Source of the DNA: a virus
Taxonomy: Duplodnaviria > Heunggongvirae > Uroviricota > Caudoviricetes
Virus record (IMG/VR): IMGVR_UViG_2802429224_000004
Coordinates: 31,285 to 95,284 of that record
Direction: 5' to 3' (one strand)
DNA: 64,000 bases
The notes under the pieces were generated by a model that did no database searches, was not told the DNA's origin, and saw only the letters and a list, made by a program, of their open reading frames with translations. Each line of letters opens with the position of its first letter. The first letter of the stretch is position 1. Position numbers and translations under genes: made by a program. Of this stretch, positions 29,159 through 31,521 are shown in pieces.

Positions 29159-30523
29159 ATGTCTGCATCCCCTCTTGAATCCATGCCAAATTCCCTTAGT
29201 GCAGAACAAGCTGTACTTGGTGGCTTAATGCTTGATAACTGCCGCTGGGATGAAGTTGCAGATCGTATAGTTGCTGATGATTTTTATACCAGTGCTCATC
29301 GTGAAATTTTCAGTGAGATGGAGAGGTTATTAAGTCATGGCAAACCGATTGATTTGATAACACTTGCTGAAGCACTTGAACAGAACGGTAAATTAGAACG
29401 CGCCGGTGGTTTTGCGTACCTTGCGGAGATGTCAAAGAACACGCCCAGCGCGGCAAATATTTGTGCTTATGCGGATATCGTTCGTGAACGCGCGGTTGTT
29501 CGTGAAATGATTTCCGTCGCAAATGAAATAGCCGAAGCTGGATATGCGCAGGATGGCAGGGGCAGCAATGAATTGCTGGATATGGCCGAGCGCCGCGTTT
29601 TTGAAATAGCTGAAAAACGACAAAAGAGCGGTAGTGGTCCAAAAGATATCGCCAGCATTCTCGATGCAACGGTATCTCGCATAGAAGAGTTGTTTCAGCG
29701 ACCGCATGATGGTGTAACGGGGCTTGATACCGGATTTACCGATCTCAATAAGAAGACGGCAGGACTTCAGGCGTCCGATCTCATTATTGTCGCCGCCCGC
29801 CCATCGATGGGGAAGACTACGTTTGCGATGAATCTCGTCGAAAATGCCGCAGTCCGTAACGATAAGCCCGTATTGGTTTTTAGCCTTGAGATGCCGAGCC
29901 ACCAGCTGATGATGCGCTCACTGGCTTCTCTTGCACGCGTTGATCAGACTCGTATTCGAACAGGGCAACTTAACGACGAGGATTGGGCTCGGGTTTCTGG
30001 CGCAATGGGTATTCTGTTGGACAAGCAGAATATTTTTATTGATGACTCAAGCGCCCTGACGCCGACAGAGCTACGTTCCCGCGCTCGTCGTGTTTATAAA
30101 GAAAATGGTGGTTTGAGCATGATTATGATCGACTACCTGCAACTTATGCGCGTCCCCGAGCTGCAAGATAACCGAACGCTGGAAATTGCCGAGATTTCTC
30201 GATCACTTAAAGCGTTGGCGAAGGAATTACAAGTACCGGTGGTGGCATTGTCACAACTTAATCGATCACTTGAACAGCGTGCGGACAAACGACCCGTAAA
30301 TTCAGATTTACGTGAATCAGGAGCAATTGAGCAGGACGCAGACCTGATCATGTTTCTGTATCGCGACGAAGTTTATCACCCGGATAGCGAAATGAAGGGC
30401 ATTGCCGAGGTAATTATCGGAAAGCAACGAAATGGCCCAATTGGCACGGTGAGATTGGCTTTTAACGGCCAATACTCACGGTTTGATAACTATGCCGGTG
30501 CTGACTGGCAAGAGGATTATTAA
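29159..30523 (+). CDS. ban: DnaB-like replicative helicase Ban
   Basis: DnaB family N-terminal domain and Walker A (RPSMGKTTFAMN); start set at ATG 29159 (track ORF begins at GTG 29153). Confidence 0.8.
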   Translation: MSASPLESMPNSLSAEQAVLGGLMLDNCRWDEVADRIVADDFYTSAHREIFSEMERLLSHGKPIDLITLAEALEQNGKLERAGGFAYLAEMSKNTPSAANICAYADIVRERAVVREMISVANEIAEAGYAQDGRGSNELLDMAERRVFEIAEKRQKSGSGPKDIASILDATVSRIEELFQRPHDGVTGLDTGFTDLNKKTAGLQASDLIIVAARPSMGKTTFAMNLVENAAVRNDKPVLVFSLEMPSHQLMMRSLASLARVDQTRIRTGQLNDEDWARVSGAMGILLDKQNIFIDDSSALTPTELRSRARRVYKENGGLSMIMIDYLQLMRVPELQDNRTLEIAEISRSLKALAKELQVPVVALSQLNRSLEQRADKRPVNSDLRESGAIEQDADLIMFLYRDEVYHPDSEMKGIAEVIIGKQRNGPIGTVRLAFNGQYSRFDNYAGADWQEDY

Positions 30524-31521
30524 TGCAATGGAATGAGGAAAAGCCGATGAACATCCTGATCATTGGGCGAAAATTTGAAGCCATCAGTGATGTGAAAACA
30601 TATACGGAAATGTGGGCTTATAACCTGGCCTGCGCCTTTAGTGAGTCAGGGGTAACATTGCAATACCATCGTCCATATACCCCTGGCGTCGAAAGCCCGG
30701 AGGATTATGTTGAAGCTGTGTTGACTGCTGCGACCGCATGTTCTGCGAAGGCCATTTTGGCACCAGGATTGAGGTATTTTACTACGGTACCCAGGGAAAT
30801 AGGCATGCAACTGTGTCGCCGATTCTCTGGATGGGTAGCCCAGGTATATGACGGTTCTATGCTGGATTCGGCACCAGTCGATATTACTTTTACTGTCCGC
30901 GATGATACCTGGCGGTACCTGGATAATCCCGGCAGGTTAGAGCGTCATAATCGCTTTAACAAACATGTTGGATGGGCAGCGAATCAGGAACTGTTCCATC
31001 TGGAAACCAAGACAGACGATGTTCTGCGTATTTTTGTAGACCACGCTGCATTTGATGTTAGTGGGTTTGATCACTCCTTAAGTATCCTTATGAACCTTCA
31101 GCGTCTGACCGTTCCGTATGAGGCCAGAACGTTGACCGATGACGGATTGGTTACCATTGATCCGGGGAATATTTCGGTAACTCCATACAGACGGACGCCG
31201 GTACCAGTAACCGAATTTGCAGCTGAATTGCGTAAGAGTGACGTTTTTATCGTTACGCATCCCGAAAGCCTTGGATTAACTGTTCTTGAGGCGGCAATGT
31301 GTGGGGCGTTGATATTAACGCCGCCAGATTGCCTTCCGCCAGATCGCCTGGCTTTGGTGAACCATATGGTTATCAAGTCGCGGATTGATTGGGATGAGGT
31401 TATTGCTCGCGTTGATCGCGTGAAAAATGCTGAAAAGGTCCAGTGTCACACCTGGTCGGCAATCGCGGAAAAGATGCTTGAGACGTTTATCACGCAGAAA
31501 CCGTCGCGAGGTAACGGATAA
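30523..31521 (+). CDS. Glycosyltransferase-like protein (GT-B/GT4-like C-terminal motif)
   Basis: 332 aa; start overlaps ban stop (TAATG); motif HPESLGLTVLEAAMCGALIL resembles the E-x7-E / EAMA-G-PVI signature. Confidence 0.45.
   Translation: MQWNEEKPMNILIIGRKFEAISDVKTYTEMWAYNLACAFSESGVTLQYHRPYTPGVESPEDYVEAVLTAATACSAKAILAPGLRYFTTVPREIGMQLCRRFSGWVAQVYDGSMLDSAPVDITFTVRDDTWRYLDNPGRLERHNRFNKHVGWAANQELFHLETKTDDVLRIFVDHAAFDVSGFDHSLSILMNLQRLTVPYEARTLTDDGLVTIDPGNISVTPYRRTPVPVTEFAAELRKSDVFIVTHPESLGLTVLEAAMCGALILTPPDCLPPDRLALVNHMVIKSRIDWDEVIARVDRVKNAEKVQCHTWSAIAEKMLETFITQKPSRGNG

Follow-up and report, generated by a model that had tools for sequence, protein, structure and literature searches.

Gene dbn of a P1-like phage: a predicted GT4-like glycosyltransferase with possible partners in PmgO, PmgP and PmgQ

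In phage P1, the gene that follows ban carries the label "dbn: function unknown, possible glycosyltransferase". Phage P7 carries the same gene as "glt, putative glycosyltransferase", for which a shorter start is used, and RCS47 carries it as "glycosyltransferase family 4 protein" (RefSeq label). P1 Dbn (YP_006544), P7 Glt and the RCS47 protein are encoded by sequences that have 96–98% nucleotide identity to the copy studied here over all 999 nt and that have the same flanks, with ban before and the convergent gene 5 after. Here we describe dbn in a 64,000-nucleotide stretch of a Caudoviricetes genome (IMG/VR record IMGVR_UViG_2802429224_000004, positions 31,285 to 95,284), which is referred to as the window throughout. 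The copy in the window shows only allelic differences from those of P1, P7 and RCS47.

A glycosyltransferase-like gene after ban, by itself, repeats the P1, P7 and RefSeq annotation, from which this idea was already known. The evidence on the start codon, the apparently atypical residues at the donor site and the link of dbn to pmgO, pmgP and pmgQ go beyond the existing annotation. We consider it quite possible, if a little short of even, that four enzymes with dispersed genes (Dbn, PmgQ, PmgO and PmgP) form a glycosylation system of P1, one that would glycosylate the virion or rewrite the lipopolysaccharide (LPS) core, the same system being contiguous in lambda-like, T4-like and other myoviruses. 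If this is true, a number of the pmg genes that the P1 annotation calls "putative morphogenetic" would encode sugar transferases, and Gram-negative phages would have a widespread, uncharacterised glycosylation module centred on a GT-B enzyme without the usual Arg/Lys pair. P1 is a standard tool of Escherichia coli genetics and one shared module would give four of its genes a first function.

Identity and predicted fold of Dbn

The window contains a 332-codon open reading frame (ORF) between 30523 bp and 31521 bp on the plus strand. The upstream ban ORF (29153–30523, plus strand) encodes a DnaB-type replicative helicase (Pfam DnaB_C, 1e-107; DnaB, 3e-35), in agreement with the P1 annotation, which places the ban start two codons later than the ORF start at 29153. 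The TAA stop codon of ban lies at 30521–30523 and its last A is shared with the ATG at 30523, so that the junction reads TAATG, as an earlier note made from the sequence alone had described. The 999 nucleotides of the ORF showed 96–98% identity over their full length to 18 phage records, and 97.6% identity to P1 dbn (NC_005856, 72659–73657). The protein matched phrog_2518, which PHROGs labels as of unknown function, over residues 1–332 (E 2e-238). The gene order of the window (ban, dbn and the convergent genes 5, 6, 24, 7, 25 and 26) is that of P1. With high full-length identity and a position after ban and convergent with gene 5, the ORF is the phage P1 gene dbn, which answers the comparison with the post-ban gene of reference P1 that the earlier note had proposed. 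A full-length intact dbn ORF was present in 83 of the 84 P1-like copies screened, which represented 53 distinct alleles, and the ratio of nonsynonymous to synonymous polymorphism (pN/pS) in the P1-like copies, with the window allele as reference, was 0.10–0.15; dbn is therefore a real gene.

The C-terminal motif resembling the GT-B/GT4 signature, to which the same note had drawn attention, is present as HPESLGLTVLEAAMCGALIL at amino acids 246–265 (31258–31317, plus strand). It holds an intact E-X7-E motif (E248-SLGLTVL-E256), the spacing typical of retaining GT4 enzymes, and H246, E248 and E256 are invariant among 128 family members. Further positions conserved in at least 85% of these members (most of them in 95–100%) are D110, G150-W151-A152-A153, D173-H174, D183, F242, T245-H246-x-E248-S-x-G251, E256, G261, W290 and W311.

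An AlphaFold model of Dbn built with 17 homologues had a mean predicted local distance difference test score (pLDDT) of 88.6 and a predicted template modelling score (pTM) of 0.85. It consists of two Rossmann-like domains with an inter-domain cleft, a predicted GT-B fold that comes closest to GT4. Structural scores were 19.2 to BshA, 19.0 to sucrose-phosphate synthase, 18.3 to glycogen synthase, 18.0 to PimA, 16.5 to WaaB, 16.2 to T4 alpha-glucosyltransferase, 15.6 to the HY126 DNA arabinosyltransferase and 15.0 to WaaG; the first inverting GT-B enzyme was at rank 30. On the strength of this model Dbn very probably has a glycosyltransferase fold, which is in line with the sugar-transferase reading of the earlier note. 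The best viral structural match was a glycosyltransferase of Tupanvirus soda lake (BFVD A0A6N1NPH0; template modelling score 0.76–0.80, 17% identity), which was well ahead of every phage entry. By sequence, comparison of Dbn with solved structures gave no significant match, only non-specific Rossmann (KtrA) and GT4 motif matches (E 0.3–1), and an NCBIfam search returned nothing useful. No transmembrane segment was found in Dbn (maximum KD19 1.55), nor in PmgO, PmgP or PmgQ.

DNA modification had been put forward as one role of the enzyme. T4 alpha-glucosyltransferase and the HY126 arabinosyltransferase are like Dbn in having a GT-B fold and in being encoded by a phage gene near replication genes, but their structural scores to Dbn are lower than those of GT4 enzymes, and about 20 generic GT4/GT5 enzymes come ahead of them. 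Common restriction enzymes routinely cut P1 DNA, and we know of no hydroxylated-base gene or pathway in P1. In addition, antirestriction was unchanged in 24 non-essential knockouts, that of dbn included (PMC9024508). Glycosylation of phage DNA by Dbn is, on these grounds, barely credible.

An exhaustive hidden Markov model (HMM) search of 1.84 billion cluster representatives returned only 372 proteins when the limit was E ≤ 1e-3, and 272 with a limit of E ≤ 1e-10. By sequence, Dbn belongs to a small family that stands clearly apart from generic GT4, itself a very large family. Fusion proteins occur in the Dbn family. In P0089 (522 aa), an MptE-like domain (residues 21–216) is joined to a Dbn domain (219–520), and P0103 (519 aa) joins a Dbn-like domain to an S-adenosylmethionine (SAM) methyltransferase. 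About a dozen other family proteins are approximately 520–630 aa long, several of them with an unidentified extension of about 200 aa that is mostly C-terminal.

Candidate partner genes in the window and in other phages

The window was searched with HMMs built from the neighbouring genes of Dbn homologues. On the plus strand this identified pmgO (37457–38119; MptE-like type A HMM, E 5e-34), which encodes an MptE/WaaZ-like putative transferase; pmgP (38017–38643; MptE-like type B HMM, E 2e-78), which encodes a second MptE-like protein with 55% identity to the neighbours of the Dbn homologues in loci L009 and L004; and pmgQ (39314–40015; PmgQ-like HMM, E 5e-47), which encodes a GT-A/GT8-like glycosyltransferase. 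In P1 all of these genes are labelled "putative morphogenetic function", while the RefSeq labels are "alpha-2,3-sialyltransferase" for pmgO and "glycosyltransferase" for pmgQ. The D79-L80-D81 residues of PmgQ are invariant. Its best structural matches include GT8 protein-glycosylating enzymes (glycogenin, GlyE and Skp1 AgtA) and a PBCV-1 capsid glycosylation enzyme.

Seventeen non-P1 loci (15 without near-duplicates) from metagenomes, genomes and viral contigs were compared. A scan of genome contigs with a narrow alignment contributed two loci; P1-like contigs filled an initial scan of viral sequences, and a distant-first alignment then gave 11 non-P1 loci. A PmgQ-like gene directly followed the Dbn-like gene, overlapping its stop codon on the same strand, in 12 of the 17 loci and lay 536 nt downstream in one other. 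An MptE-like gene was located at most 1.1 kb from the Dbn-like gene in eight loci, and a PmgQ-like and/or MptE-like neighbour was present in 16.

The cassette is found in several settings. In lambda-like phages (L009 and L004) it precedes the terminase genes, in L099, L100 and L107 it is flanked by the tail sheath and tape-measure genes, and in L101–L108 its neighbours are UvsX, UvsY and helicase genes as well as methyltransferase-like and sugar-nucleotidyltransferase-like genes. Dbn homologues also occur in bacterial-looking polysaccharide loci, for example a Colwellia locus with Wza and L013, in which the adjoining gene is truly homologous to E. coli WaaZ (pairwise E 1e-10).

The proteins of the window showed 56% (Dbn), 55% (PmgP), 48% (PmgQ) and 39% (PmgO) identity to those of the lambda-like L009 cassette. 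There, the order is pmgO-like, pmgP-like, a GT-A-like ORF, dbn-like and pmgQ-like, and all of these genes overlap. The P1 order is dbn, the convergent tail genes 5–26, pmgL, pmgM, pmgN, pmgO, pmgP, ppp and pmgQ. In the window, pmgO and pmgP are read in different frames and share about 100 nt (38017–38119), and the corresponding pair in L009 (4301–4891 and 4843–5442) overlaps too.

Joint action is suggested by this synteny in many unrelated phages together with one MptE–Dbn domain fusion, and on balance Dbn probably works with PmgQ, PmgO and PmgP. The gene dbn would be the displaced member of a phage transferase set made up of Dbn, PmgQ (GT8-like GT-A) and PmgO/PmgP (MptE/WaaZ-like), a set that appears contiguous in other phages and would have been split in P1 by the tail and baseplate genes 5–26.

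All members of the proposed set are dispensable for plaque formation. When P1 genes were screened genome-wide by CRISPR interference (CRISPRi), dbn, pmgO, pmgP, ppp and pmgQ were non-essential, and the table of that study cites a knockout study as non-essential for each of them (PMC10695390). Gonzales et al. included an in-frame dbn deletion among 29 single-gene knockouts, of which five were essential (pmgA, pmgB, pmgC, pmgG, pmgR), while the other 24 had no plaquing defect and unchanged antirestriction (PMC9024508). A preprint reports that the dbn transcript changes in an hfq mutant and gives no function. We searched the literature for functional work on dbn, pmgO, pmgP and pmgQ and found none. 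The gene dbn is an accessory gene, and its product probably does not act alone.

Start codon and operon context of dbn

Two start codons for dbn were compared. The long reading (30523–31521, 332 aa) starts at the ATG that overlaps the ban stop codon (M1), and the short reading (30547–31521, 324 aa, MNILIIG...) starts at the ATG at 30547 (M9). Both are on the plus strand and each is preceded by a GAGGA Shine-Dalgarno sequence: at 30512–30516, within the end of ban and 6 nt before the first ATG, and at 30535–30539, 7 nt before the second. All non-P1 homologues begin at a Met aligned with M9 (MK[IL]LIIG). In the AlphaFold model, residues 1–5 of the long form had a pLDDT below 50 and were predicted to be disordered, and the first strand began at residue 10. 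Among 81 P1-like viral contigs, the junction was TAATG in 66 and TGATG in two; in the remaining 13, ban and dbn were separated by an insert of approximately 300 bp that carries a 101-aa ORF. In these 13 contigs there is an in-frame TGA ten codons 5′ of the MNILIIG Met and no intervening ATG, so dbn must start there at the equivalent of M9. On these three lines of evidence the conserved start of dbn is probably the second ATG, at 30547. The earlier note had proposed that dbn is translationally coupled to ban; the TAATG overlap is real, yet it is not a conserved feature of dbn, and coupling as a conserved feature is doubtful. An example of the insert is L022:7699–8004, whose 101-aa ORF had no Pfam match; the ban/dbn junction is a variable slot.

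A search of the window with the C1 operator consensus gave 15 matches (spanning 5478–60060) against 0.42 expected by chance, among them sites at 26103–26130, 36393, 40017/40066 and 42158. The site at 26103–26130, directly after dmt, comprises one perfect and one overlapping inverted site with two mismatches, and it matches the divalent P1 operator Op72ab, which controls ban. A sequence identical to the P1 C1 operator Oppp (Op83) was found at 37299–37315 on the minus strand, upstream of pmgN-pmgO-pmgP-ppp-pmgQ. This site has four mismatches to the consensus and was missed at the three-mismatch setting. The dbn unit and the pmgN–pmgQ unit therefore both carry annotated C1 operators, Op72ab before ban and Op83 before pmgN.

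RNA folding revealed a hairpin with an 11-bp stem (31543–31569; -22.3 kcal/mol, z -3.2) between the convergent dbn and gene 5, which had been missed by a simple terminator scan and is likely to be a bidirectional terminator. It is GC-rich with A and T runs on its flanks, and it overlaps the gene 5 stop codon. Given the homology to P1, the zero gap between ban and dbn and the hairpin after dbn, co-transcription of dbn with ban under C1 control is a reasonable inference. As it would be transcribed with ban from a C1-repressed operon, dbn would be made after induction or infection and not in the stable lysogen.

This bears on the suggestion that dbn serves lysogenic conversion, in which Dbn would be a stand-alone enzyme expressed by the prophage from promoters inside ban and would alter a host surface glycan. 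In the P1 annotation, dbn has two predicted sigma-70 promoters that lie within ban, and a GT-B fold would suit such an enzyme. These promoters are predictions only, and a promoter scan of 28700–31800 found one weak promoter-like site against 4.6 expected by chance. The gtrABC seroconversion operons of temperate enterobacterial phages modify a surface glycan, which is one candidate role of Dbn too. The Gtr enzymes, however, are membrane proteins that use bactoprenol-linked glucose, act in the periplasm and are expressed in the lysogen, whereas Dbn is predicted to be soluble and cytoplasmic and its operon is C1-repressed. Gtr-type seroconversion was rejected on the lack of a transmembrane segment in Dbn and of gtrA/gtrB-type or other gtr-like neighbours. 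The strong synteny with other transferases also argues against solitary action. Lysogenic conversion, as raised in the earlier note, is a poor fit and we regard it as unlikely.

Upstream of ban, the region 27726–28770 contains a small membrane-protein ORF and a 275-aa ORF for an SPFH/Band-7 lipoprotein-like protein (Pfam, 1e-30). Here the window follows RCS47, whereas reference P1 has tciA/B/C. Two tRNA genes are present in the leader of the ban operon (26784–26858 and 28798–28873), a tRNA-Asn (GTT) and a tRNA with a CAT anticodon that P1 labels tRNA-Ile2. ARAGORN did not report the P1 tRNA-Thr within 24000–30000.

Proposed role, candidate acceptors and known glycosylation systems

The overall explanation that fits best, and to which we give about an even chance, combines a GT4-like Dbn, the four-gene set and the LPS core as preferred acceptor. 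Dbn would be a soluble, cytoplasmic, GT4-like GT-B glycosyltransferase of approximately 36 kDa that is probably retaining. We infer that the four proteins jointly build or extend a short glycan; the donors would be host nucleotide sugars, since the dbn-pmg region holds no sugar-activation genes of P1. The preferred acceptor would be a Kdo (3-deoxy-D-manno-oct-2-ulosonic acid)-containing envelope glycolipid, namely the LPS core, which is the receptor of P1 itself, and remodelling of this core could limit superinfection or the loss of progeny on debris. If the four genes were shown to form one module, this would point either to virion glycosylation in a Gram-negative phage or to remodelling by the phage of its own LPS receptor, and a small family of GT-B enzymes whose donor-binding residues are unusual would be defined.

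Several observations weigh against this explanation. In the window, the partner genes are 6–8.5 kb downstream of dbn in a separate transcription unit, and in one of the 17 loci, a P1-like Citrobacter plasmid, neither partner is found within 5 kb. For dbn, no phenotype is known, either biochemical or genetic. Against the LPS core in particular, late structural operons of several phages (sheath–tape measure; capsid–connector) contain the cassette or PmgQ by itself; such a place would fit modification of the virion better than a change to an outer-membrane lipid just ahead of lysis. The GT4 reading is qualified by the match of Dbn to Pfam Glycos_transf_1 (PF00534), which scored 23.5 bits, below the curated gathering threshold of 26.4, and spans only amino acids 230–315 (positions 84–169 of the 172-position profile); a few distant family members exceed the threshold (P0102, 29.9; P0149, 28.4). 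In GT4, GT5 and GT20 enzymes, the C-terminal domain opens with a "GR...KG" that binds diphosphate. At this position the Dbn family has D173-H174, a variable stretch, S180-G181 and then D183 (31039–31071, plus strand), with the D173-H174...D183 residues invariant and no conserved Arg/Lys; the placement of D173/H174 relies on profile alignments of low confidence, one to E. coli WaaG and the other to a GT4 set of five members, which agree. Since the GT4 Arg/Lys pair is undetectable and D-H...S-G stands in its place, the donor chemistry of Dbn could be atypical. Compared with the retaining GT-B enzymes of CAZy family GT4 (BshA, PimA, WaaG and sucrose-phosphate synthase), Dbn has 10–14% identity, is smaller (approximately 324 aa) and has the invariant D-H...D instead of their donor-diphosphate Arg/Lys.

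The same features could mean that Dbn has a GT-B fold without nucleotide-sugar transfer, either as a non-catalytic partner or scaffold or with a monophosphate-activated or non-nucleotide donor. The sub-threshold Pfam match to the second half of the domain only, the replacement of the Arg/Lys pair and the gap between this family, with only 372 clusters at E ≤ 1e-3, and GT4, which is very large, are consistent with this. However, the two glutamates of E-X7-E, H246 and the GWAA(D) motif do not vary and purifying selection is strong, as is typical of an active site, and we regard a Dbn of this kind as very unlikely.

Returning to a four-enzyme transferase set with Dbn as an active member, the acceptor could instead be a P1 virion protein (capsid, sheath/tube or fibres). 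The sheath–tape measure position of the cassette in L099, L100 and L107 is in keeping with this. In HK97-like prophage regions, PmgQ homologues (L176:7001–7654 and L177:7001–7591) separate the major capsid gene from the head-tail connector gene, a position that suggests virion modification, and a methyltransferase follows one of them. The structural neighbours of PmgQ include protein-glycosylating GT8 enzymes and the PBCV-1 capsid enzyme, the P1 authors placed pmgO–Q among "putative morphogenetic" genes behind a late promoter, and the MptE-like superfamily includes flagellin glycosyltransferases. A precedent is found in mycobacteriophages, for which glycosylation of virions is documented. Like the proposed P1 set, their cassettes have several phage glycosyltransferases that growth does not require, in many cases accompanied by methyltransferases; the hosts differ. 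In P1, dbn lies in an early C1-controlled operon with a helicase, and bacterial Dbn homologues are in polysaccharide loci and not in protein-glycosylation loci. A P1 proteomics study with sodium dodecyl sulphate–polyacrylamide gel electrophoresis was silent on glycosylation, though it was not aimed at it (PMC9024508). A virion protein as acceptor is thus a rather doubtful reading.

LPS or another envelope glycan is a tentative choice of acceptor, and we slightly favour the LPS core over virion proteins, with DNA being unlikely. The closest cellular Dbn homologues, as far as sequence comparison indicates, are located with WaaZ-like genes in polysaccharide loci, and the dbn operon is shared with envelope-related accessory genes, here that of the SPFH-like lipoprotein. 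P1 adsorbs to LPS core glucose that is dependent on galU. The E. coli waa operon, which builds this core, is a known system with which the set was compared. Dbn has no close sequence relationship to the waa enzymes (hhalign probability 2% to WaaG and 0.4% to WaaB), and a kinship to E. coli WaaS was rejected, the two being unrelated. The likeness is one of fold: the operon encodes the GT4 enzymes WaaG and WaaB, the GT8 enzymes WaaO and WaaJ and the Kdo III transferase WaaZ, and these are the same three fold families to which Dbn, PmgQ and PmgO/PmgP of P1, respectively, are assigned.

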